A stretch of 64,000 nt of DNA from Podarcis vaucheri (lineage: Eukaryota), in NCBI GenBank assembly GCA_965113315.1, contig OZ220372.1. One strand, given 5' to 3'. This document shows, piece after piece, positions 5,791-33,100 of the stretch. The position numbers and the translations under genes are program-made. Each line of letters opens with the position of its first letter. The stretch's first letter is position 1. The notes below the pieces were generated by a model, which searched no databases, had not been told where the DNA came from, and was given only the letters and a program-made list of their open reading frames with translations.

Positions 5791-7796
5791 TCATTAGAAA
5801 AGCAGAACGTTTCTTAACCAAATTAGAAGATTGGAGAAGGGGTAAGATGAGCGTGATGAGGGCACAAGTATAAATGTGGGGGGACCTGCATGCGGAGGGA
5901 TGATGAATCCTCCCTCCCCTGATTTCCCTGGACTCCTTTGCCCTACTGTCAGGCCTTGGCCAGGATCTAACAAGGCCTCATGTGAAGAGCCCAATGCAGG
6001 GGCAACCAGCCAAGGTTCATAATGGCCAGAAGTATTATAAGGTTGAAAACATGAGACAAGGAGAGAGAGATTCCATGGTTACTTGGTAAGTTGTTCATCA
6101 GACTAAGAAGCTCAGTTGGACACAAGGGCTAGAAAAGTGAATAGAGAACAGAGAGGGTCAAAGCAGAGCAGAAAACGAAATCTAAACCCCTTCCCTCAAA
6201 ATCAGAAGGGATGGAAGTTGTTCAGTAACCCTGAACTTCGCTGGCCCCACTGGTGAGGGAAGCTGCTTTCAGGTCAGTCTTGCTGACTGTGCTCTCCTCT
6301 CCCAAAGCAAAGTTCAAAACCAGAAAATCAGTGTTACCTCCAGCATTGTAACTCCAAGTGTATCCCAGGTAAATCGTACATAAGGTCACCTATTGCAATG
6401 CCTGGAGTACTGCCAGTACTTTTGCTCTAAAGCCTTGCTACTTCCAGCTGCCCACTCACTTCCACCAATCTTAGCTCTTTCCGTGTCACTCCCCCTTTTG
6501 CAGAAGATAGTTCAGATGCAGTTTTTTAATTCAAACAACCACTGCTTAGAACTAACTCTCTCTCTCTCTCATCTCCCAATGAGGCAGCAATTTTTTTAAA
6601 AAAATCCTTCCAATTTTAGGAAGGCATGAAAATAACAAAGAACTAAACTTTTCAAGATGTGAGGTACAAACTTTTAAATACTACATGGAAGTCTCCCAAC
6701 AGACTCATGGAGGGACACCACATAGTATCGGAATAACTGGGAAACAGCAAAAATGGGGCAGGTGAGATGTATATCCACCAAAAAAGAGATTTGACAGGTG
6801 AGGTGCAAAACAAAAAAAATGAACCATGTTGCACACAGATAATAGGCAACTGCCCCTTTTTCCAGAATACAAAAGTTCTGAAGCACATCCTCTGGAATAC
6901 ATTTTCTCATCACACAATTAAATTTTAATGAAACTCTATCATTCCTTGCTTCCATTCCAGCCTGCCCACACCTTTAAGTCATTCTCACCTGCCTGACACC
7001 CAGAGCAATTAAACTGATGAGTATAAAAGGGCATTCTCTATATTGTCACCATAGCTCTTTTTCAGCTGGACTCCTTCAGGCCACAACATTTCAGGACTTT
7101 AGGAAAGGGTTGAAAACTTACCTGCTTACACTGGCCTTTCCTTGAATTAATTTTTTCTTGCTGCAGTTGATTTTGGCTATATATGTGTGATAGGGGTGGG
7201 GGGGTGGCTGGATGTTTATTGCTACTGGCTTATTAAATGTCTGTAATTTTTTGATGATATTGTATTTGTATTATTTAACAGAAGCCAACTTAACAGGGTT
7301 TGACTCTTAAAGCCAGCATACAAATAGATCAAATAAATAAACACAATTTAAATAAAACTATTTGGTTTGGAGGAAGGGCCAGTGGTATGACTGGGGTTGA
7401 TGTAGAAGACAGCTCCTTCAGTTGCAAGGGGACAACTGTGAAGAGCTGAAATGTATCACCATGGTGTCTCATTACAACCAAATGTCAGATGAAAGAAAGT
7501 GGAAAATAGAGACTGATTTCCAAGGTTGGAGAAAGACAATAGTTTAAAAGCTGGAAGCGGTTGGAGAAATTGTTTCAAAGAAAGACAGATATTTCATTGA
7601 TTCCATTGTTGCCTCTTATCAAGCAGGTTTTTTGCAACCAATACAAAATCCTGTAAAACCTGTTTAAGCAGAGTCAAAAGGAGGATAGTGTGTGTGTGTG
7701 TGTGTGCGCGCGCACGTGCGTTCATATACACACACACAACGCCCCCCCACGACAGCAATCTATCTTTCAAACCACCTTCAATTCTTTGAAAAAAGC

Positions 7797-8553
7797 TGTC
7801 AGGGGTTCAGAAGCAGAGACGCAGAGAAGGGTGGAAACAGAGAGCGAGGGGGAGGAAGCCGAAGGGAGAATGAGTGATGATGACGACCCGAGATCTCCAA
7901 GCCTAAGCAGTGAGTCAGAGGACTCCCAAAAGGGAGCCCCAGTGAGCAGAGCAAGGGGGGGATCCGGGGGGACACCCCAGGAGGAAGGGAACAGAGGAGA
8001 TTCAGAGAGCAGCAGCTGGAAGTCGGGACCCACGCTCAAGACTGAGAGCAGCAGGGAGGAAGGCAGCCAGGCATCGGGTTCCGGAGGCCGTCAGCAGGAG
8101 GGAGGGCACGAGTCAGGGGTGGTCACGCCCTCCTCAGAGAGCGAGGCAACGGTCAAGAGGAAAGTAGAGAGTTGGGCGCGCGCGCCAAGTTCAAATGCAG
8201 CGGAAGCTGGAGCAGTAAGCAGCCCGGAGAGTGAGCCAGGTCCCAAAGCCCGCCGAAAGGAAGTGGAAGGATCAGGGGGGTCAGCGTCAGAGGAGAGTAG
8301 AAGGGAGGAGTCCCAGGGGGGCAGAAGGACCCAGAGACGTAGGGAGAGGCGAAGGAGGTGGAGCAAGGCTAGGGTATTAAGCTGGTGTGCAAGAGGCGGG
8401 GACTCAGATGGGTCTTCGCCGACCTAGGGCAGAAGGTGTAGAGCTGCACGCTGCAGTTCGGAAATGAAACCTGTAACTCAATAAAGACTCTTTTAAAGTG
8501 GACGCTGTGTGGCGTGGTCCTATGTGAGCTGGGACCTGGTAGCAGCTCTGACA
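7797..8553 (+). repeat. 5' LTR (U3 7797-8405, R from about 8406, U5 to 8553)
   Basis: Matches 13606-14362 except T8264/C14073 and C8313/T14122 (by eye); TATTAA 8375-8380, AATAAA 8480-8485. Confidence 0.97.
8375..8410 (+). promoter_or_regulatory. LTR core promoter: TATA-like box (TATTAA) and initiator, predicted TSS A8406
   Basis: TATTAA starts 31 nt upstream of an Inr-like CTCA(+1)GA; this A is also the first base of the sequence complementary to the PBS. Confidence 0.7.
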
Positions 8554-8555
8554 GT

Positions 8556-8566
8556 AAGACCCATCT
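8556..8566 (+). other. Self-priming primer-binding site (AAGACCCATCT)
   Basis: Begins after a 2-nt spacer downstream of the 5' LTR; lacks the TGG of tRNA PBSs; exact reverse complement of 8406-8416 (AGATGGGTCTT). Confidence 0.85.
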
Positions 8567-8663
8567 CATCAAAGCTTCAGAAACCTGAAACCTCGCAGCG
8601 GGAGCAGAAGCCGCTAGGGGAGGAAGAGGGGTGTCTGTAAGCAAGCTCACAAAGGTTAGCAAG

Positions 8664-9740
8664 ATGACGGAAGAACAGAGGATCTCCGCGCTGCAAGAGG
8701 CAGTGACCCAGTTGTCCTCAGAGGTATTGGCTTCCAAGAAACGGGAGGAGGAGACTACAGCCGCCTACAGAGACCTACACGCCAGGTTTGAAATGCTTGT
8801 TAAGCAAGGGCAACCGGGACCCAGACCGGAGGGCGTGGGATTGGCACGGAGAGCAGGAGGGCTTGTGGCTCACTTCGATGGGACTTTGCAACAGTACCCT
8901 AATTTTAGAGCAGACGTAATGTGCGCACTGCAACTGCTGGCAAAAGACTTTAGAGATGAGGAAGAGAAGGTGGGGTTCATATTGTCCCATTTGCATGGGG
9001 ATGCCAAAGCCTGGCTGCGCAATTTGTGGAGGGATAAAGATCCGGCGCTTCAGAATGCAGATGCCTTTATCAAAGCGATGGATGCGTGTTTTTTGTCTAC
9101 TATTGATGTGGATCTTGCCAGACGGGAGATTCATGGACTAAAACAAGGGAGGGCGAGCGTCCGGCAGTATCACGCCCGATTTTTTGCGCTGGTCAGTGCT
9201 TTAGAATGGGATCGGGATTCGCCCCCTGTCAGAGACCTCTTCTGGGAGGGTCTAAGTTCTGCGGTTAAGGATGAAATTGCAAGGGGGGAGAGGCCCCGAA
9301 GCACGCAGGAGGTGGTCCAAAGGGCGCTGACTGTGGGGGTGAGGCTGGAAGAACGTCCATGGTTCAGAGATGAAGGACGTGGAGGGCGCGAAGCAGCGAG
9401 AAGTTTCTCTTTCGTTCCGAGGGAAGCAGCGCGTGCGCAATCCACACCTCCGCCAGGAGGGGGAGGGGAACCGATGGAGGTTGGAGGTGCAAGGGCTCAG
9501 TCAGCAGCCAGAGCCCTAGCACCGGCAGCAGTGAAAGCGAAGCCTCCTAGAGGGAACAGGAAGTGTTACATCTGCGAGGATCCAGGCCATTTGGCGAAGG
9601 AGTGTCCCCGGAGGCTCCACAAGCACACTGCAGCCTCAGCAATGGTGACTGCAGCAACGCAGCAAGGAGAACCACAGCAGGGAAACGACGATGTCTGGCT
9701 GGAGACGGAGGCACTGGGGCCCAGCCAGACGCATCTGTGA
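8664..9740 (+). CDS. gag: Gag (358 aa), PEG10/sushi-like capsid plus CCHC zinc knuckle
   Basis: First ATG at 8664; N-terminal coiled-coil-like stretch, FDG...KVGFILSHLHGDAKAW capsid motif, CYICEDPGHLAKEC (CX2CX4HX4C). Confidence 0.93.
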   Translation: MTEEQRISALQEAVTQLSSEVLASKKREEETTAAYRDLHARFEMLVKQGQPGPRPEGVGLARRAGGLVAHFDGTLQQYPNFRADVMCALQLLAKDFRDEEEKVGFILSHLHGDAKAWLRNLWRDKDPALQNADAFIKAMDACFLSTIDVDLARREIHGLKQGRASVRQYHARFFALVSALEWDRDSPPVRDLFWEGLSSAVKDEIARGERPRSTQEVVQRALTVGVRLEERPWFRDEGRGGREAARSFSFVPREAARAQSTPPPGGGGEPMEVGGARAQSAARALAPAAVKAKPPRGNRKCYICEDPGHLAKECPRRLHKHTAASAMVTAATQQGEPQQGNDDVWLETEALGPSQTHL

Positions 9741-9752
9741 AGCAGTCCCCAG
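9680..9752 (+). other. -1 programmed ribosomal frameshift: slippery heptamer G_GGA_AAC plus predicted H-type pseudoknot
   Basis: GGGAAAC 9680-9686 in gag frame; 6-nt spacer; stem 1 9693-9702/9721-9730 (10 bp); stem 2 9714-9719/9747-9752 (6 bp); pol is in the -1 frame. Confidence 0.88.
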
Positions 9753-12700
9753 CGATATTGCAACCCACGGATCCCCTCCCACCCAAACCAGTAGTGCAGC
9801 TCACAGCATCTCTCCAGCTACCCGACGGCGTCACTATCGAAGTGCCGCTTTCTGTGGATTCTGGAAGCAACGCAGACTTTATAGCGCAGAGCTTTGTGGA
9901 GCAGCACGCTATACAGCTATTGCCTGCCACTCTGCCCCTGCAAGTCGTCACAGTGGATGGCAGAGAGTTGCTAGGGGGGCAGGTGGTGAAGCAGACGCCA
10001 CCGATGGTGATGCGCCTTGGCAACCACAGGGAAGTCATCAGTTTTAATGTCACCCAACTGTCGGACACGCCCATTGTGTTGGGCATGAGTTGGCTGGACA
10101 GGCACAGTCCGACACTGGCTTGGTACCAGAGACAACTGATCTTCGGCTCCTCTTATTGCGCAGAACACTGCATCCTGCCCCGACGGGAGGGAGAGGAGGA
10201 GGAATCACAACTGCAGTTGGGAACGTTGCAAGCGGTCCCCCACAAATACGCGAGCTTTTTGGAGGTCTTCTGCGAGAAGGAGGCGGACAAGCTACCCCCT
10301 CACCGGCCATATGACTGCAAGATTGACCTCCTACCGGGGGCGACGCTGCCGAAGGGGCGGCTATACTCCATGTCTGAAGATGAAATGCAGGAACTCAAAC
10401 AGTTCATCGAGCATAATCTGGAGCGTGGCTTCATCAGAGAGTCCAAGGCAGTGGGGGGCAGTCCCGTTTTCTTCGTGAAAAAGAAAGACACGCCCCAAAA
10501 AAGACTCGTTGTGGACTACCGCCTTTTGAACCAGATGACCAAACCGTCTGATTACCCCATGCCCAGGATTGACGACCTCCTCGCGACGGTGCGCAAGGGA
10601 CGCGTGTTCACCAAGTTGGACCTGCGAGGGGCGTACAATCTCATCCGCATGCGGGAGGGCGATGAGTGGAAGACGGCCATGTTCACACCGCTGGGCACCT
10701 ACGAATACAGAGTTATGCCCTTTGGATTACAAAATGGCTCTCACTGTTTTCAAGCTTTTATGCATCACGTGTTGGAGGGACTCCTCTACAAGACATGCGT
10801 CTGCTTCCTGGATGACATCCTGATTTTCTCTGACTCGCAGCAAGCTCACGACCGAGACGTGAGGGAGGTGCTCAGCAGGTTGCAACAACATAGACTGTAC
10901 GCCAAGCTGGAGAAGTGCCAGTTCGACACGACGGAGGTGGATTTCCTGGGATACAAGTTGTCGGACAAGGGGATAGCCATGGACAGCACCAAGGTTCGTG
11001 CGGTATTGGATTGGAAGAGCCCGCGCAACCGGAAGGAGGTCCAGCGGTTTGTCGGCTTCGCCAACTTCTATCGCAAGTTTATCAAGGGGTTCGCGATGCA
11101 GACGGCAGCAATTACGGACACGCTCAGCTCCAAAAAAAAGAAATTCATCTGGACGGAGCAGGCGGAACAGTCCTTTCAAGCGCTCAAGCATCTCTTCGCA
11201 TCGGAGAAGCAACTGCTGCATATCGACCCCAGTAAACCGTTGAGGGTAGAGACAGACGCATCAGACAGAGCCGTGGGAGCTGTCCTGCTGCAGCGAGACC
11301 CGCAGGGGGTGTGGCGGCCGGGAGCGTTCTACTCCAGAAAGCTCAGCAAGTCGGAGCAGAACTACACCATCTGGGACAGGGAGTTGCTGGCCATTCATGC
11401 AGCTTTCAAGGCGTGGAGGCACTTCCTAATCGGCGCCAAGCACACGGTGCAGGTCTGCACGGACCACAAGAATCTGGAGCACTGGCGCACGGCTCAGTTC
11501 CTGAACCAGAGGCAGATACGTTGGGCGGAGTTCTTTGCTGACTTCAATTTCCGAATAGAGTACGTCCCAGGCGACACCAACATCATGGCGGATGCACTGT
11601 CCCGAAAACCGCAATACCTAGAAGAGGTGACGCCAGCGGCGGCCATGCACATCTTCGCACCGACGGCGTGGGCGTGTGCCTCAGCTACAGTAGACCTGGA
11701 TGCGGTGCGACGTGCATTGCGGGACGACTCATTCGCGCAAGACAAGATGGCGGAACTGCTCAGAGGCACGGCTACCAAGGACGAGTTCCAGGTGCGGGAC
11801 GGCTTGCTCCTACGCAAAGGGGCTGTCTATGTACCAGGAGACGACCTTCGCGCCAAGGTACTGCAACAGTTGCACGACGCACCCACGGCCGGTCACTTTG
11901 GCACAGAGAAAACGATGGAATTAGTCGCGAGAGACTTCTGGTGGCCCAGGCTGAGAGGAGAGGTCGCGGACTACGTCGCGAGGTGCGACACCTGCCAGAG
12001 GGCCAAGCCGGTACACAGACCACCGGCGGGACTGTTAGAACCGCTGCAAACACCGTTTGAACCGTGGGAGAGGGTGGCCCTGGACTTTGTGACGGATTTA
12101 CCCAGCTCGAGAGGCAAGACAGCTGTGCTAGTGGTGGTGGACTTGTTCACCAAGATGGCACATTTCATTCCGTGTGCGAAGGTGGCCACGGCGGAACAAA
12201 CCGCCAAACTGTTCATAGATCACGTGTTCAAAGTGCATGGCCTGCCACGGTCTATCCTGTCCGACCGCGGACGCCAGTTCATCTCGTCTTTCTGGCAGAA
12301 GCTGATGGGTTTTCTAAATGTCAAGGTCAATCTGGCATCAGCAAGACACCCGCAGACCAACGGGCAAGCAGAGAGGGTCAATGCCATCATGCAGCAGTAC
12401 CTGAGATGCTATGCCAATCAACAGCCTGCGACGTGGGTGGATTACCTGCCGCTAGCCGAGTTCGCTTACAACAACACGAAGCACGTGTCCACAGGAGTGA
12501 CGCCGTTCTTTGCCAACAATGGGAGGAATCCCAGAACCTTCCCGGGACTGGAGAGAGTGGGGGAAGGAGAACCACAGACGGCGGACGCGTTCGCGTCAGA
12601 GCTGCAGGCGGTCCACGATCAACTCAGACGGCAGCTGGAGCTAGCTAAGCACGCCTACAAGGTGCAAGCTGACAAGCACAGGCGGGTTGGCGAAGTGATC

Positions 12701-14236
12701 CAAGTGGGAGACTGGGTCTGGTTGGCAGCCCACGCAGTGCCGACCAGGTCACTTGCCAAGAAGAAGTTGGGGCACAAGCAGATCGGTCCGTACCAAGTCG
12801 AAGCGCAGATCAACCCGGTAGCCTTCCGACTGGCGCTGCCGGAGGGTTCCAGAATGCATCCGGTGTTCCACAGGTCGGTGCTCACTCCCTACAAGGCACC
12901 TCACAGGTTCCAGGAGCCAGGGACGGCGCCAAGTCCGCTCCGGGAACGGACGGAGACGCGGGAGGTGAAGCACCAGGACCACATCAACGAGGTCACGGAG
13001 ATTTTGGACTCCAGATGGGGGGAAGAGGGAGTCGAATACCTCTTAGCCAGAGAGGGCACCCGGGCCAGCGCCAATAGCTGGGTACCAGACTACGCTTTGG
13101 AGGAACCCCTGCTCAAGGACGAGTTTCATGCCCTCTTCCCACACAAACCCATGCCAGCGAGCTTCTTCGACGACTGGTTGTTCACACCCACACTTTCTTC
13201 CAGCACGTTCCATGGATTCGACTCAGAAGGGGAACCCGCACGGAGCACCCGTTCCCCAGAAGGTTCACCGGCAGGTTCGGCATCAGGCAACTCGTATTGG
13301 TGGGACGATCGACCAGAGGAGCAATGGCGCAGGAAGTGGCTGGAGATGCCAGGTCGAGCGACCGACGCAGAGACTGACATGGACGTGTTCGGGGAGGACC
13401 TCGGGTTCGAGCACGGCGGTACAGAGATGGAAGAGCAACAAGTCAACGTCGACGACCGCGAGGGGGAAGACTCGGAGGTCTTCAGTTGGCGGCCACCCAA
13501 GGGGAGCGACCTGTATCCAGCATTCCCTCCCATGATGATGGAGCACCCAGCACCCACACCTGACAGCGGGGAGGGGGGAAGGGGGGGCTTCGAGGGGGGG
13601 ATGGATGTCAGGGGTTCAGAAGCAGAGACGCAGAGAAGGGTGGAAACAGAGAGCGAGGGGGAGGAAGCCGAAGGGAGAATGAGTGATGATGACGACCCGA
13701 GATCTCCAAGCCTAAGCAGTGAGTCAGAGGACTCCCAAAAGGGAGCCCCAGTGAGCAGAGCAAGGGGGGGATCCGGGGGGACACCCCAGGAGGAAGGGAA
13801 CAGAGGAGATTCAGAGAGCAGCAGCTGGAAGTCGGGACCCACGCTCAAGACTGAGAGCAGCAGGGAGGAAGGCAGCCAGGCATCGGGTTCCGGAGGCCGT
13901 CAGCAGGAGGGAGGGCACGAGTCAGGGGTGGTCACGCCCTCCTCAGAGAGCGAGGCAACGGTCAAGAGGAAAGTAGAGAGTTGGGCGCGCGCGCCAAGTT
14001 CAAATGCAGCGGAAGCTGGAGCAGTAAGCAGCCCGGAGAGTGAGCCAGGTCCCAAAGCCCGCCGAAAGGAAGCGGAAGGATCAGGGGGGTCAGCGTCAGA
14101 GGAGAGTAGAAGGGAGGAGTCTCAGGGGGGCAGAAGGACCCAGAGACGTAGGGAGAGGCGAAGGAGGTGGAGCAAGGCTAGGGTATTAAGCTGGTGTGCA
14201 AGAGGCGGGGACTCAGATGGGTCTTCGCCGACCTAG
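9686..14236 (+). CDS. pol: Pol polyprotein (protease, RT, RNase H, integrase, chromodomain, long C-terminal extension into the 3' LTR), expressed as a Gag-Pol fusion of about 1857 aa
   Basis: VDSGS protease; KLDLRGAYN/MPFGL/FLDD RT; ETDASD...DRELLA...TDHKNL RNase H; HHCC and D,D,E integrase; GPY motif; chromodomain 12986-13150; stop TAG 14234-14236 lies inside the LTR. Confidence 0.96.
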   Translation, partial: RRCLAGDGGTGAQPDASVKQSPAILQPTDPLPPKPVVQLTASLQLPDGVTIEVPLSVDSGSNADFIAQSFVEQHAIQLLPATLPLQVVTVDGRELLGGQVVKQTPPMVMRLGNHREVISFNVTQLSDTPIVLGMSWLDRHSPTLAWYQRQLIFGSSYCAEHCILPRREGEEEESQLQLGTLQAVPHKYASFLEVFCEKEADKLPPHRPYDCKIDLLPGATLPKGRLYSMSEDEMQELKQFIEHNLERGFIRESKAVGGSPVFFVKKKDTPQKRLVVDYRLLNQMTKPSDYPMPRIDDLLATVRKGRVFTKLDLRGAYNLIRMREGDEWKTAMFTPLGTYEYRVMPFGLQNGSHCFQAFMHHVLEGLLYKTCVCFLDDILIFSDSQQAHDRDVREVLSRLQQHRLYAKLEKCQFDTTEVDFLGYKLSDKGIAMDSTKVRAVLDWKSPRNRKEVQRFVGFANFYRKFIKGFAMQTAAITDTLSSKKKKFIWTEQAEQSFQALKHLFASEKQLLHIDPSKPLRVETDASDRAVGAVLLQRDPQGVWRPGAFYSRKLSKSEQNYTIWDRELLAIHAAFKAWRHFLIGAKHTVQVCTDHKNLEHWRTAQFLNQRQIRWAEFFADFNFRIEYVPGDTNIMADALSRKPQYLEEVTPAAAMHIFAPTAWACASATVDLDAVRRALRDDSFAQDKMAELLRGTATKDEFQVRDGLLLRKGAVYVPGDDLRAKVLQQLHDAPTAGHFGTEKTMELVARDFWWPRLRGEVADYVARCDTCQRAKPVHRPPAGLLEPLQTPFEPWERVALDFVTDLPSSRGKTAVLVVVDLFTKMAHFIPCAKVATAEQTAKLFIDHVFKVHGLPRSILSDRGRQFISSFWQKLMGFLNVKVNLASARHPQTNGQAERVNAIMQQYLRCYANQQPATWVDYLPLAEFAYNNTKHVSTGVTPFFANNGRNPRTFPGLERVGEGEPQTADAFASELQAVHDQLRRQLELAKHAYKVQADKHRRVGEVIQVGDWVWLAAHAVPTRSLAKKKLGHKQIGPYQVEAQINPVAFRLALPEGSRMHPVFHRSVLTPYKAPHRFQEPGTAPSPLRERTETREVKHQDHINEVTEILDSRWGEEGVEYLLAREGTRASANSWVPDYALEEPLLKDEFHALFPHKPMPASFFDDWLFTPTLSSSTFHGFDSEGEPARSTRSPEGSPAGSASGNSYWWDDRPEEQWRRKWLEMPGRATDAETDMDVFGEDLGFEHGGTEMEEQQVNVDDREGEDSEVFSWRPPKGSDLYPAFPPMMMEHPAPTPDSGEGGRGGFEGGMDVRGSEAETQRRVETESEGEEAEGRMSDDDDPRSPSLSSESEDSQKGAPVSRARGGSGGTPQEEGNRGDSESSSWKSGPTLKTESSREEGSQASGSGGRQQEGGHESGVVTPSSESEATVKRKVESWARAPSSNAAEAGAVSSPESEPGPKARRKEAEGSGGSASEESRREESQGGRRTQRRRERRRRWSKARVLSWCARGGDSDGSSPT
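13568..13605 (+). other. Polypurine tract (plus-strand primer), G-quadruplex-prone
   Basis: GAGGGGGGGATGGA immediately precedes the 3' LTR TG at 13606; four G-runs within 13568-13600. Confidence 0.85.
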
Positions 14237-14362
14237 GGCAGAAGGTGTAGAGCTGCACGCTGCAGTTCGGAAATGAAACCTGTAACTCAATAAAGACTCT
14301 TTTAAAGTGGACGCTGTGTGGCGTGGTCCTATGTGAGCTGGGACCTGGTAGCAGCTCTGACA
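13606..14362 (+). repeat. 3' LTR (poly(A) signal AATAAA 14289-14294)
   Basis: 757-bp direct repeat of 7797-8553, followed by TSD AAAGC. Confidence 0.97.
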
Positions 14363-14957
14363 AAAGCATTTTTTAATCTGACCCAAGATTTCCGCAAAGG
14401 TCCCTTTGGAAACATTTAGCACTCTTGTCGGAAAGGAGACAGTCTAACCCAGTTCTTGTGGCTGATGTGTGCAAGTCATCAAAATCAATGGACGCAATTC
14501 CAGTGATTTCAATTTATCCACTCAAGAGTTTGACCAACCTTGGATATCACCAGTTTTTTAATGAATAATTTTTATTAATTCTAGTTTTTTGAGGCACAGC
14601 ACTGCTTATCATCCTCACAGACTTCCGAGTCCCAAAGATTTCTACACTTTGTCATTTAAAAGCCATATTTAGCTCAAGTTGCACGAAGATGGCCAAGTTT
14701 GAATCTTCTGTCTTTCTACCTCCATATCCAAACCCCATTTGTCAAAAACAAAAACCCAAGGACATTTATGATCAATAGTTGCTATCTTAATGCCAAACAC
14801 TACCACAAAACTCCTACTGCCCATCAGCATTCAGAGGGCAAGAGGCAGGTATCCGGCAAGGGTGGGGGGCAGTCTAGGTATCATGTTGTGCAAACTCTAC
14901 TCTACCAAGTGGGGATTTTTTTTGTCTCTTTTTTCATGTTTGCCACATCTTCTTACC

Positions 14958-18200: not shown

Positions 18201-18617
18201 AGCCAGGAGAGCATAAACTTGCGTTGTTTTCATAAGAAAGATGTTTAGCAAGGCATTGCCATTGTGAGGGAATGTAGTTGCCATTAAGTATTTTTATAGG
18301 TTCTGTGACAAATTTGGGAAAAACAGATGTAATATATAGAGTATGTTTTGGAGCCACAGGGGGAGAGAGGGTGTTTTATTCAGACTACACCCAGTGAAAT
18401 TACTGGACCTAATTTAAGTCAGGTTCGTTAGTTTCAATGGGTCTATTTTGAGTAAAACATAGTTGCGTAGCTTAGTTGAGTAAAACATCCAGTGAATTCT
18501 TCCCTGCTTCTCAGCTTAATGAGATCTGCATACCAGTGAATTCAATGCTGGCTCAGAAATCAGCCTTGCCTTATTCTGTTAATGAAAAAAGGACAAAGGT
18601 GTTTTTTAAAGCGGAAA

Positions 18618-18621
<4 letters not shown>

Positions 18622-18654
<33 letters not shown>
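18622..18654. repeat. (TG)n microsatellite
   Basis: Direct reading. Confidence 0.95.
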
Positions 18655-18656
<2 letters not shown>

Positions 18657-18688
18657 TGTTGTAGTTGCCATCCTATCAATGCCACATG

Positions 18689-19052
18689 CAGCGGCGGAGC
18701 GTATGCCTGCACTGCCCAGGGTGGGCGTGCTTCCAAGGGGGGCAGAACGCGCTCCTGAGCAGGGTGGGGGACAGAGGGTGCCCTCCCAGGTGCAGGATAG
18801 CCACTCGGGTGCACAGAGCGGTGCACGCGCCCTGCAGCTGGGGGTGGAGGGAGCCACTGAGGGCGGACATTCGCCCCCACCCCCAGTTGTCAAAACGAAG
18901 GGGGGAGGGGGGAATGCTACCAGCAAAGTGGCGCAGCTCCCCCCTTCCCCCGACGGCTTGGGGTAGGCTTGGGCAGCACACCGAACGCCCCCCCCCGAGC
19001 GAAGACACCTGGGGCAGCCTGCCCCCATCGCACCTCCCTTCCTCCGCCCCTG
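18689..19052. mobile_element. GC-rich non-autonomous hAT-like element
   Basis: Termini CAGCGGCGGAG/CTCCGCCCCTG; perfect 8-bp TSD GCCACATG (18681-18688, 19053-19060); GC/CpG-rich island in an AT-rich background. Confidence 0.8.
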
Positions 19053-22000
19053 GCCACATGCACACCTGGCTTGGGCTGCAAACTTACAAAACAGTTTTTT
19101 GATATTTTTTATTTTGTTTGTTTTTAAAGAACATGTTTGAACAAGATGAAGCTTCTTCCAAACAAATCTCACTGCTCTATACAGGTCACATCTGTCTTTT
19201 CTCTCTAACTGGTTTTCAAACTGAAAAAGGGACAGTAATCAGTTAAGAATTTTTGATTGCCAGCATTGTCTCATGGCTATGCACATTGCACAGAGGCAAA
19301 CCTCAGATCTGTCACAGACTGTGCGCTCCATAATGAGGTGCAGTTAATCAAGGCTGCCTGGAGGTGTGTCCGTGGATGCCTGAGGCTCCAGCATTGCAGG
19401 TGAAGCCAAGCAGGTGTGGACCCGATCAATTATTTGGATGGGAGACTATTGGGGCAACCCAGCTAGATGGGTGGGGGATAAATAATAAAATTATTCTAAT
19501 TATTATTATGTATACGCAGGATATAAAATTATATTTTAAGTGTGTCTGCATGATGTATGCTTGCAAACACATGGTTATCACACTCACAAAATTTAGGTGA
19601 GCATTTAAAAAGGCAGATCTAAAAGGGTGCACACAGAAATACATGAAGTAGATATTTAGCTGAAGAGTATATGAATACTAGTGAATCAGTGTACACATTT
19701 TTCCAGGAAAGCAGAGGTGCATATACAAAAAGATAGATAATGCGCCTTTTTTCCGTAGCAAAGGTTCAGATTTGAAAGATTTCTGTTACTCTAGAAGTTG
19801 AAACAATTCAGTTTTGTATAGCTGCCTTTAGTGGGTGAATCAGCCTCAACATGAGTATCTGTGTTAAAACATCCCCAAATTCTGGGGGGTTTTGTGTGTT
19901 TTTGGGGTGGGGGTAAAAAAAACTGAACTAGATGCTTATGGCCCAGAGGTGTTTAGGAATTCTGTAAAAAAACAACACCATAGAGATTCTAGTATGCCTT
20001 AACTATTCAAAATATATTTGCTCTTAACAATTTTACAGTATCTCTGTTAAGCTTTAGCTGCTGGTTCTCTTTTACTGCACCTGTTATCTTGATACCTGAC
20101 AGAAGGACTGCCCACTAGGGAGTACTAGAACCAGTTCTACATCTAGAATACTTGGTTATTCAGCACAATACAGCACAACACAGCACAGAAAGGGAAAGTG
20201 CCAATCAATATTTTTTTTTAAAAAACCCACCTCCAAAGACATTGGGAATTTATACAAAACAGCAACCAAGATTAATATCATAGGTTTAATATAAAAACTT
20301 ATAAAGGCTTCAGCACCCACAGCACTAAATATATGCCTCCATTACTTCTTGAATGAATGATACAAAAGTAATGAATAAGGGAAAACTCCACCAAAATTTC
20401 ACATGAAACCTGCACAGAGATTGATCACAAAGAACCACAAATTATCCCTTAAACCTAAATCATTGCTCTAGTTGCAAAGTAGAAATCTCACATGACTATT
20501 AAAGAATGATTAAAAACCAATAAACAGAGTTAAATGCCTATGCTAAGCCTGTACAATGAAATGAAATCTTTAAGAAAAGGAAGATCAGCTTCTAAATTAT
20601 TATTTAGAAATTATTATTATTATTCAATTAATTTCATCTATGGATGAAATTCAGTTAGGGGGATATTTTATTTCAATCTCTCTCAAGGGGATAATCATGT
20701 ACATTAAGATTACCATAACAAAATTCTCTATTATATAGATCCTTTGCTTTTGAAGATTTTCTTTCTTGTCCACAATATTTATTAAAAAATTAAAAGTTGT
20801 TAACCCTTGGATCTTCAGTGGCATGTTGATAGTAACTGGGTAACCATAAAGAGATTACTGTTCCCCTCAAACTGTTCCCAGCAAGGTCTGTAATCCTACA
20901 GATCACACAGATCCTACAGATTATATAATTAAATAGCAATATGTAGAAGAGTTTGCATACTTATAGCAGGCATCCTGCACTATTTTTTTGGACAAATTAA
21001 TGTTAAACGTTAGTGCAAATTAAGAACATTATTCTCTACTATTATCACTATAAATTGGTTACCAAGATGAAGAGGAAGGTGGAAGACCTGGTTATGCTAA
21101 TGATATATTATCTACCTCCCATACCAAAGAAATAATGCATTTGAAAGAAACAAAGTTGTAAAGTCACATGATGTTTACTGTGTCTCATTTGTTTTTCCTG
21201 GGAAGAGTATTACAACTACTTCTTCCTACACAAAGGTACACGTAAAGTTACACACATAACCTTTGCATTGTGTTGTACAACACATGCAAATCTTCCAAGT
21301 GACTAACCAAAGCACATTAAATGTGGGAATTCATATTCTATTTCAGTTGTTTTGTGCTATAAAATGGCTGGAGAACTAAAATTATTAACAGCTATCATGA
21401 AGAGCCATATATTATATTTCTTATGTAACACACACAGGTATTGGAAAGCTGGCTCCAACTGCAAGTTATAAGGGGATGCAGCACATCATTTGGATTAGTA
21501 CTACAATTCTGATAATATTTTCTTTCTGTGTGTATTTAATCATTATACCAATCTTCTCCAACTTTTGAGAGATTCTATAAACAGCCCACAGTCAATTTTA
21601 CTACGTAATATGCACACTGGTGCATTAATTGCAAACAATTAAAACAGTACAGGCAATTTCTTAATTTTGTGAGGATTACGCTTTGAAAACAGCAGAAAAC
21701 CAGTGTTTTGCAAAATGTAATCTACTAGCATAGTTGTGTTGGGACTTTCCTGTCAAGTCCAACTTCTGAATCTGAAATAGCAATCTTGAAACCTCTTGTG
21801 CTAAGCAGGGATTGCCAGCATTGAACTGTACACCCAAAAAATCCCGTGTTGCAACACGCTAAACAACAACAAGCAACACGTTGGCTAATAATGTACTGAC
21901 AATATTTTTATAACATTATACTGTTTCAAAATTCATAAACAGAAAACATATGTGCATGGAGTCACAAATTAGTAAGAATTGAATAAATGGAACATCCATG

Positions 22001-31899: not shown

Positions 31900-33100
31900 C
31901 TGTTGTCTCCAGATCGTTTCCCTGGATCGGGAAGGGCGGCGCAGCGAAGAGAGCGCCTGGCCTTTCCGTGTGTCGTTTTGGCAGCCACGCTGCCGCTGTG
32001 CTTATGGGGAAACGGGAGATCAAATCGGCCCCCTCGACGCTGCGGAAGGAGCCGCTGTTTTGCCTCCTCCGCCACGACCCCTTGCGGTGCCACCCGAGGC
32101 ACGTTTGCACGGCGAGGCTTGCTCCCTCGTAAGCGTGCAGGAGGGGCTGGTGCTGCTCATCTCAGGCGCGTAAACAAGCCGCCCGGATCATGGCAGGCGA
32201 AGGACAAACCGGGGCGCCAGAGCGCCGCAAAATGGATGCGACTCTGCGCGCGCCGTTCCCCTCCAACCCTCCGGCTCGCTCCGCAGCGGCCGCCCTACCC
32301 GGAGCCCCCCCCCCCGCGCGCTCCCGCCGCCGCCGCCCTCACCGAGGCGCGTGTCCCGCGGCGGGTTTTCCATCAGCTTCTTCAGCACCAAGGGGAAGGC
32401 TCCCGCCAGGCCCCGCTCCTGCTGCGCGGCTCCCGCGGTCCCCGCCGCCGCTTCCTGGTGCGCGGCACGGCTGGACATACTATAACCAAGCGGGCGGCGG
32501 CTTCCGAGACACCCCCACCCTCCTCGTGAAGGCCCTGAGAGGGGCGAGCGGCGGCGGCGGCGAACGAGGCCAGCTGAGGGGGCACCCGCGAAGCGAGAGG
32601 GAGGGGCCGACCCGCCACCACTCGACGCCGACGCCTGCGCGTGCGCCGCTCCGGACGGCGGCTTCTCCGGGGGGCCCCGAGGCGCTTTTAACTATTCATG
32701 AGCCCAGCGTCGCCACCCTCACGTTCTGCGCCCTGCGATTGGCTAGGGTCTCCGGGAAGGCGGGGCTGGCCGCCAGGCACGTGCAGCTGAAGGGTGAGTT
32801 TCTCATTAGCATGGGGGCCCCGCCCTACGCGCTGGCGGGTATGCCGCCGAGACGCCCTATTGCTTTGCGCGCGACGCGCACCCGCGGCTCTGACCTTAAG
32901 TGAGCCTTGAAGCGAAGGGTGCGTGCCAGGGTAACCAGCAGAGGGAGGCGGCGGAGCCCTTTTCACCTGCGTGGGAAGGAGGGGGAGTGGAAGGTGAGGG
33001 GACCAAAGAGGTGCCGGGACGACGGAGGGGGCCCCGCGGGGCAGCCCCGGAAAGAGGAGCTTGGCGTCTTTAGAGGTCAGAAAGCTCGCGGAATTGGAGG
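31900..33100. promoter_or_regulatory. CpG island / proximal TEF promoter with E-boxes and CCAAT box
   Basis: Very high GC and CpG density; CACGTG 32778-32783, CACGTT 32720-32725, ATTGG 32738-32742 upstream of the minus-strand exon 1. Confidence 0.8.
32343..32478 (-). CDS. TEF: TEF proximal first coding exon (299-aa isoform)
   Basis: [45 protein letters not shown]+G|gtgag; conserved [13 protein letters not shown] motif; phase 1 joins exon 2; total CDS 900 nt. Confidence 0.93.

Follow-up and report, generated by a model that had tools for sequence, protein, structure and literature searches.

Why the pol frame of a retrotransposon should stay open for hundreds of codons beyond its last recognizable domain, through the polypurine tract (PPT) and the whole of U3, is the question raised by a stretch of 64,000 nucleotides from Podarcis vaucheri (GenBank assembly GCA_965113315.1, contig OZ220372.1; this whole stretch is called the window here). 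The element concerned is an intact, self-priming Gypsy chromovirus with long terminal repeats (LTRs), in which the frame extends for 361 codons from the ATG at 13151 to the TAG at 14234-14236, with 152 codons starting upstream of the 3' LTR, the other 209 lying within it. The open frame very probably encodes a functional tail of the integrase, a continuous extension of the protein being the simplest reading. With less assurance, and from sequence comparison, we lean towards a role of this tail as an integration tether, in which an FxGF motif would dock on the host proteins LEDGF or HRP2. A preliminary description of the locus had already given the 361 extra codons (about 150 before the LTR and 209 in it) and the stop in R, and all its coordinates and counts hold; the translation of the PPT in the pol frame as GEGGRGGFEGG and an ATG at 13679, opening a frame of 185 amino acids, are confirmed as well. 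The features of this part of the element are as follows.

12989-13129, + strand: chromodomain without the three aromatic-cage residues (Pfam E=0.031; CBX1/CBX5 alignment)
13151-14233, + strand: integrase C-terminal tail of 361 residues, acidic, Ser/Gly-rich, predicted to be largely disordered
13163-13234, + strand: FxGF motif resembling those of LEDGF/HRP2 partners, made up of FFDDWLF, an 8-residue Ser/Thr linker, FHGF and DSEGE
13292-13345, + strand: conserved block YWWDD..EE.WR..W
13592-13601, + strand: PPT, read in frame, with an extra purine run upstream (13568-13587)
13606-14362, + strand: 3' LTR, 757 nt, with U3 (about 13606-14214) coding for tail residues
13679-13681, + strand: internal ATG, kept only in the closest subfamilies
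14132-14194, + strand: Arg-rich stretch and a motif (L/V/I)L-x-W, whose Leu codon, TTA, overlaps a TATA-like TATTAA (14184-14189)
14215-14225, + strand: self-primer copy in R of the 3' LTR, coding as well, just 5' of the stop
14234-14236, + strand: pol stop TAG, in R, 126 nt short of the LTR end
14289-14294, + strand: AATAAA polyadenylation signal

The preliminary description had cautioned that U3 is T-poor on this strand, which lowers the frequency of stops. U3 does have only 9.7% T, and this composition contributes to the open frame but is insufficient to explain it. In 5000 mononucleotide and 5000 dinucleotide shuffles, applied to the whole tail and to its LTR and pre-LTR parts, the whole tail remained open in none of the former and one of the latter, and the LTR part alone in 3 and 47, respectively; the pre-LTR part taken alone is not significant, being open in 307 of the dinucleotide shuffles. 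The other two forward frames contain 8 and 11 stops.

Older subfamilies were retrieved from the same genome by searching with diverged Podarcis muralis tails, which yielded 101 oriented sequences, 58 of them delimited by patterns and 19 intact, with some loci fetched twice. As expected for dead copies, 39 of the 58 are broken in the tail, often in G runs. The 16 intact representatives, picked for long open frames and belonging to groups 61-80% identical in DNA to the window copy, all keep the frame and the same terminal motif, with the stop 122-126 nt short of the LTR end and, in the window element's clade, at a constant distance of about 55 nt upstream of the poly(A) signal. Changes in length are in frame: the LTR-coded part measures 628, 655, 673 or 703 nt, and the tail 349-382 codons counted from the Trp of WLF. 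No stop or frameshift separates the integrase from the LTR part in any intact copy.

Ratios of nonsynonymous to synonymous change (dN/dS) were computed by the Nei-Gojobori method, with bootstrap, for 10 pairs that have branches in common and hence are not independent. All 10 pairs gave 0.17-0.34 in the LTR-coded part, with upper bootstrap limits not exceeding 0.55 and no ratio near 1, and in each half of U3 every computable pair stayed below 0.5; read in the +1 frame the same region gave 0.95-2.19, and in the +2 frame 0.69-1.15. One antisense frame that shares the wobble position was also low (0.28-0.44), but it contains stops. For comparison, the integrase core gave 0.04-0.08 in the eight pairs without L129, whose values (0.23 and 0.40) were excluded because 26-27 codons fall out of the alignment. 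The signal of selection is not an alignment effect, since in the two gap-free pairs that include the window copy the changes at the three codon positions number 29/33/75 and 31/31/77 (p<1e-6); in one close pair this excess was not significant (p=0.09). In close pairs indels of 1-5 nt are found only 3' of the stop and none in the coding LTR. The LTR part is composed of 24% Ser/Thr, 19% acidic and 17% basic residues with four aromatics, and it contains the conserved motifs SLSSESEDSQ and APSSN and the basic clusters KRKV and KARRK/R, conserved across the clade. To judge from its composition, it is a linker without fixed fold that carries basic clusters and closes with a conserved stretch.

The best-conserved piece of the tail is not encoded by the LTR, and the preliminary description had overlooked it, together with the clade-wide layout described below. 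It consists of the first 29 codons, FFDDWLF-TPTLSSST-FHGF-DSEGE, located 5' of the LTR, with dN/dS of 0.09-0.23 in 8 of the 10 pairs (one of the others is unchanged and one gave 0.60). The F, G and F of the motif are invariant and x variable (H/R/Q/M) in 98 of 100 motif hits, the two misses being mis-anchored, and F-x8-10-FxGF arises in 0.13% of shuffled tails. In the TND-interaction motif (TIM), or IBD-binding motif (IBM), a helix is followed by an acidic or phosphorylated linker of 8-16 residues and by FxGF; the FxGF is described as indispensable in every known partner of the LEDGF/HRP2 TND, and the linkers as often phosphorylated on Ser/Thr (PMC9987994). The consensus has been given as D/ExExFxGF (PMC8022399), and the same motif is used by JIL-1 of the fly (10.1101/624023). 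The window family has FxGF with a Phe-ended helix 8-16 residues upstream, and its F-x8-FxGF spacing is that of the JPO2-M1 and PogZ IBMs. The human IBMs compared, taken from fusion constructs, were JPO2 (IF-NAPSDDEE-FVGF), PogZ (LF-EGESETES-FYGF) and MLL1 (FLGFGSDEE).

A search of the genome with the Pfam SH3 profile brought up 30 loci from other families. One of them, L183, is a conventional chromovirus that has kept the cage aromatics and stops directly after the chromodomain; the remaining loci belong to sister families, whose intact members are 68-72% identical to the window element in reverse transcriptase and 59-60% in integrase. Their LTRs of about 410-440 nt are unrelated to, and shorter than, that of the window family. 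In intact sister copies the frame nevertheless crosses the PPT, codes for 100-110 residues in the LTR and stops just past the 11-nt self-primer, and the tails terminate in an Arg-rich stretch and LLCW; for this part all six pairs gave dN/dS of 0.20-0.37. The LTR-coded length thus ranges from about 100 to 234 codons across the clades, and in the middle of the tail no similarity between the two was detected by hhalign or alignment. Common to both are a Trp codon 23 nt upstream of the self-primer and synonymous variation of the Arg codons near the tail end. The Leu before the terminal Trp is mostly TTA, overlapping the TATA-like box, so this terminal site is probably constrained both as DNA and as protein.

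The first FxGF motif of the sister families, F-GTTDDEED-FVGF, has four or five D/E in its 8-residue linker, fits D/ExExFxGF and lies in register with the window motif (hhalign probability 98.7); a second copy, F-ESSEDGDSS-FRGF, has an acidic linker too. Among 16 sister loci read beyond the chromodomain, 15 have at least one motif and 12 have two. With two tandem canonical motifs, the sister families (L184-L212 and L213-L232) are better binding candidates than the window family.

The chromodomain of the window element falls below the Pfam cut-off (E=0.031) and is profile-homologous to the sister chromodomain (Pfam E=1.8e-10); in the alignment to CBX1/CBX5 the positions of the cage residues Y, W and F are occupied by N, R and T, so the three-aromatic cage is absent and reading of methyl-lysine is unlikely. 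We propose that Gag-Pol would be produced by a -1 frameshift and that the tail would remain on the integrase, together with the SH3 domain and the cage-less chromodomain, in place of which it would tether integration. The TIM-like FxGF motif would dock on the TND/IBD of host LEDGF or HRP2, a phosphorylated Ser/Thr linker would substitute for the acidic one, and the Arg-rich end encoded in the LTR would probably contribute nuclear import or a contact with chromatin, so that the tail could influence insertion sites. The host genome encodes both LEDGF and HRP2. A complex prediction for the Lacerta agilis LEDGF IBD (P0028, residues 361-452) with a 36-residue motif peptide scored 0.24 against a mark of 0.34, with a tool not validated on peptides and with alignments unused, and speaks neither for nor against docking. 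An AlphaFold2 model of chromodomain plus tail, built on six sequences, had a mean pLDDT of 39.6 with even the chromodomain unfolded, and was not used. Searches of PDB sequences found nothing at E<1 for the sister motif region, and for the window chromodomain plus 90 residues only chromodomains (E 0.015 or weaker) and two chance rows for RGS18.

The insertion sites of the family were surveyed by a whole-genome pattern count, which found an LTR end directly within a TTAGGG-type array in 60 matches at 52 places; on calibration it recognized 8 out of 11 cases already known and none of 41 others. This corresponds to about 7% of 713 elements, a share for which the anchors differ and solo LTRs lie outside the denominator. 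Such arrays account for 0.35-1.3% of the assembled sequence (929,757 18-mers), which gives an enrichment of 6-21-fold, and target-site base preference accounts for about 1.3-fold. On most large contigs the array insertions are gathered in the last 4 Mb or so at one end, and the arrays are probably pericentromeric, because lacertid acrocentrics bear centromeric or pericentromeric telomeric-like arrays (PMC7290949). Older members of the window clade lie in arrays at 10 of 40 loci, whereas none of 20 sister loci does, and a count across the genome placed 0 of 69 sister copies there (p=0.011). The pattern suggests targeting to arrays, with no tie to the FxGF motif. It may instead reflect neutral retention of copies in arrays; the sister family is older than the window family, and some array copies are segmental duplicates (L007-L009). 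Two early estimates were dropped as overstating the array share: among the 150 best hits, 35 of 143 copies lay no further than 0.5 Mb from a contig end, and 11 of 52 flanks were in arrays.

The arrays themselves are degenerate and megabase-scale, total 5.6-21 Mb and lie at one end of most chromosomes, with at least 52 LTR ends of the family in them; examples are C19:106.3-108.1 Mb, C25:0.7-2.8 Mb, C29:0.2-1.3 Mb and C41:39.0-41.1 Mb. The 41-Mb contig C41 carries most of the older Gypsy copies (50 of 69 of one sister family) and few young ones outside its array end, and is likely the W chromosome.

Several points weigh against docking on LEDGF/HRP2, for which the support is sequence comparison. 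FxGF occurs by chance in the reverse transcriptase and in 3% of shuffled tails. The window linker TPTLSSST contains no D/E and six S/T and fails the strict D/ExExFxGF consensus, and the Phe in the motif helix is shifted by one place from the JPO2/PogZ pattern. Since the motif lies upstream of the LTR, it gives no account of why the 209 LTR codons persist. The pairs used for dN/dS are linked by common branches, their members had been preselected for long frames, and in the pre-LTR part the two closest pairs gave 0.57-0.63, with intervals spanning 1. As to insertion sites, the motif alone does not explain the array bias, as the sister family with its two better motifs is absent from the arrays. 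LEDGF reads active chromatin, yet the clearest bias is for TTAGGG arrays; HRP2, which favours silent chromatin marks (PMC4797281), may fit the arrays but adds a second assumption. About 90% of copies are outside arrays, where they are not scorable for genes. It is a tentative and rather doubtful extension of the tether hypothesis that a vertebrate chromovirus clade has swapped methyl-lysine reading for one or two host-type FxGF motifs docking on LEDGF/HRP2, and so has arrived at the cofactors of HIV along another path, together with an LTR-coded tail steering the window family into pericentromeric TTAGGG arrays, as an animal counterpart of the plant centromeric CRM elements.

Other explanations of the open frame have to be considered. 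The tail could be a selected integrase extension with a different main job, such as nuclear import, binding of RNA or nucleosomes by its Arg-rich end, histone chaperoning by its acidic part, or contact with another TND protein. The LTR-coded part is selected throughout, KRKV and KARRK/R are conserved in the clade, and the basic cluster at the end is retained in both clades while its Arg codons vary synonymously; TIMs are, moreover, able to bind other TNDs (PMC9987994). We consider this rather unlikely, given that the FxGF block is the most constrained part of the tail and is duplicated and canonical in the sister families. It could also be that translation of U3 persists mainly because it makes the 3' untranslated region shorter, by which decay of genomic RNA would be avoided, or as a flexible spacer for the terminal motif, the middle mattering little. 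The range of LTR-coded lengths, the fixed distance from stop to poly(A) signal and the dissimilar middles of the two clades would fit, but with both halves of U3 under selection in all computable pairs and with SLSSESEDSQ and APSSN conserved, this is improbable. Chance read-through of T-poor DNA without any protein function is hardly credible: the scarcity of T, the 47 dinucleotide shuffles with an open LTR part and the 39 broken tails of older copies speak for it, against which stand dN/dS values specific to the frame and far below 1 in both clades, the third-position excess, in-frame length changes and the confinement of small indels in close pairs to the sequence past the stop.

The preliminary description had left room for either an integrase tail or a separately made Tat/Rev-like protein. 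Its proposal of a selected, LTR-encoded protein region is borne out in the former version, whereas the latter is not supported. A separate accessory protein (Tat/Rev/Nef/Bel-like) made from a spliced or subgenomic RNA and regulating transcription or export of the element is suggested by the 185-residue frame from the ATG at 13679, which a gene caller also extracted from one Logan contig (P0008), and by a splice-donor-like GTAAG (8554-8558) that directly follows the 5' LTR and is conserved in the clade. However, Met occurs at this position in only 3 of 8 representatives and is missing from the proteins P0004 and P0011, there is no stop or frameshift to detach the LTR part from the integrase, and the donor-like GT is GC in the sister families. 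The Met adjoining the PPT is likewise replaced by Val, Leu or Ile in other representatives. Since U3 lies upstream of the inferred transcription start, it would be present only at the 3' end of full-length RNA. No GT..AG joint was seen in 15 of 190 joints from three contig runs on the stretch, such contigs being uninformative on expression. A separate protein is thus of little probability, and a continuous tail on the integrase remains our preferred reading.

The rest of the element shows the features of a Ty3/Gypsy chromovirus of the Tf1/sushi group in its LTRs, target-site duplication, gag and order of protease, reverse transcriptase, RNase H and integrase.

7797-14362, + strand: intact LTR retrotransposon, a self-priming Tf1/sushi-type chromovirus with TG...CA ends
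7792-7796, + strand: left target-site duplication, AAAGC
14363-14367, + strand: right target-site duplication, AAAGC
7797-8553, + strand: 5' LTR, 757 nt, with two differences from the 3' LTR
8406-8416, + strand: 11-nt self-primer, 5' LTR copy, where R and, by inference, the transcript begin, complement of 8556-8566
8556-8566, + strand: 11-nt primer-binding site (PBS) pairing with the self-primer
8664-9740, + strand: gag, with Retrotrans_gag/Ty3 capsid and CCHC knuckle (Pfam)
9551-14236, + strand: pol open frame
9680-9732, + strand: slippery heptamer GGGAAAC followed by a strong stem-loop, within the gag-pol overlap, -1 frameshift predicted
9854-12892, + strand: pol core, with protease, reverse transcriptase, RNase H and integrase (H2C2, rve, Tf2-type SH3) (Pfam)

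The PBS is complementary to the element's own R, and its pairing with the self-primer covaries in at least eight sequence variants, in subfamilies and sister families alike; self-priming is a mark of the Tf1/sushi group (PMC6317226). A -1 frameshift between gag and pol is predicted at GGGAAAC (9680), behind which a structure of -28 kcal/mol was obtained by fold prediction. We take GGGAAAC to be of the slippery heptamer type. The family is young and abundant, with 713 exact 5' LTR-PBS junctions in the genome and a 1561-codon frame identical in 128 of the 150 best copies. The closest named proteins are those of P. muralis, with 88% for pol and 78% for the chromodomain and tail taken together. 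Protein searches with the window tail found only P. muralis, P. lilfordi and two Logan proteins, the sister tail not having been used as query; one relative from Rhineura is partial and ends within the chromodomain. The 5' LTR ends lie 5809 or about 5851 nt from their own 3' LTR ends, which hints at two young length variants, and L122, L126 and L138 are nested or tandem insertions, including a young copy within an older relative and head-to-tail elements with a common LTR. Elsewhere in the window, GC-rich islands at 18500-19200 and 32000-33000, the second CpG-rich, may be host promoters.

The preliminary description had regarded it as established that Gypsy pol normally stops before the PPT. 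This does not hold in general, since the pol frame enters the 3' LTR in all plant CRM group A elements, where the LTR tail is a putative targeting domain (PMC3059260), as well as in the Bingo elements of beet (PMC3605345). As in CRM group A, the polyprotein frame of the window chromovirus continues past the PPT into the 3' LTR, where it encodes the C-terminal region of the integrase. CRM elements, which are concentrated in centromeric regions (PMC3059260), are primed by tRNA-Met, have a single gag-pol frame and have replaced the chromodomain, whereas the window element has a self-primer and a predicted frameshift, keeps a cage-less chromodomain and reads all of U3 into R. No plant sequence was among the five phmmer hits for the window tail, and no Pfam match links this tail to any family; the layout is convergent with that of CRM and not a sign of membership. 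The window element is similar to the Tf1/sushi chromoviruses of fungi and vertebrates in its 11-nt self-priming PBS, domain order, Tf2-type SH3 and chromodomain (PMC6317226), and differs from the conventional member L183 in the lost cage and in the 361 residues that follow the chromodomain. The reading of pol into a 3' LTR with a targeting domain is therefore known from plants, and what is new is the FxGF motif on the tail. In the literature covered, which did not extend to subscription journals, Repbase reports and supplements, we found neither an FxGF/IBM motif in a retrotransposon integrase nor a squamate tail like this one. In this vertebrate Gypsy element the LTR also serves simultaneously as promoter, as primer and as coding sequence over the entire U3. 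The family further draws attention to a retrotransposon living in the telomeric-repeat arrays of lacertids.

The retroviral nef, sag and bel/bet genes, too, are coding sequences laid over U3, and they give separate proteins from subgenomic RNAs. The window frame, by contrast, is continuous with the integrase and has no conserved start of its own. With the TIM/IBM of JPO2, PogZ, MLL1 and IWS1 it has in common a short Phe-ended helix, an 8-residue linker, FxGF and an acidic flank, and it departs from them in a linker of Ser/Thr rather than acidic residues. A short peptide and a well-characterized partner domain would make the key claim cheap to test. Lentiviral integrases contact LEDGF through their folded domains and are not known to use an FxGF motif. 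If the window family does bind, its integrase would offer a functional parallel to the use of LEDGF/HRP2 by HIV-1 (PMC9987994), as well as a natural test of how TIM-TND contacts select integration sites; tethering by LEDGF/HRP2 would then not be peculiar to lentiviruses, and a retrotransposon integrase would use the same domain by way of a linear motif of the cellular type.

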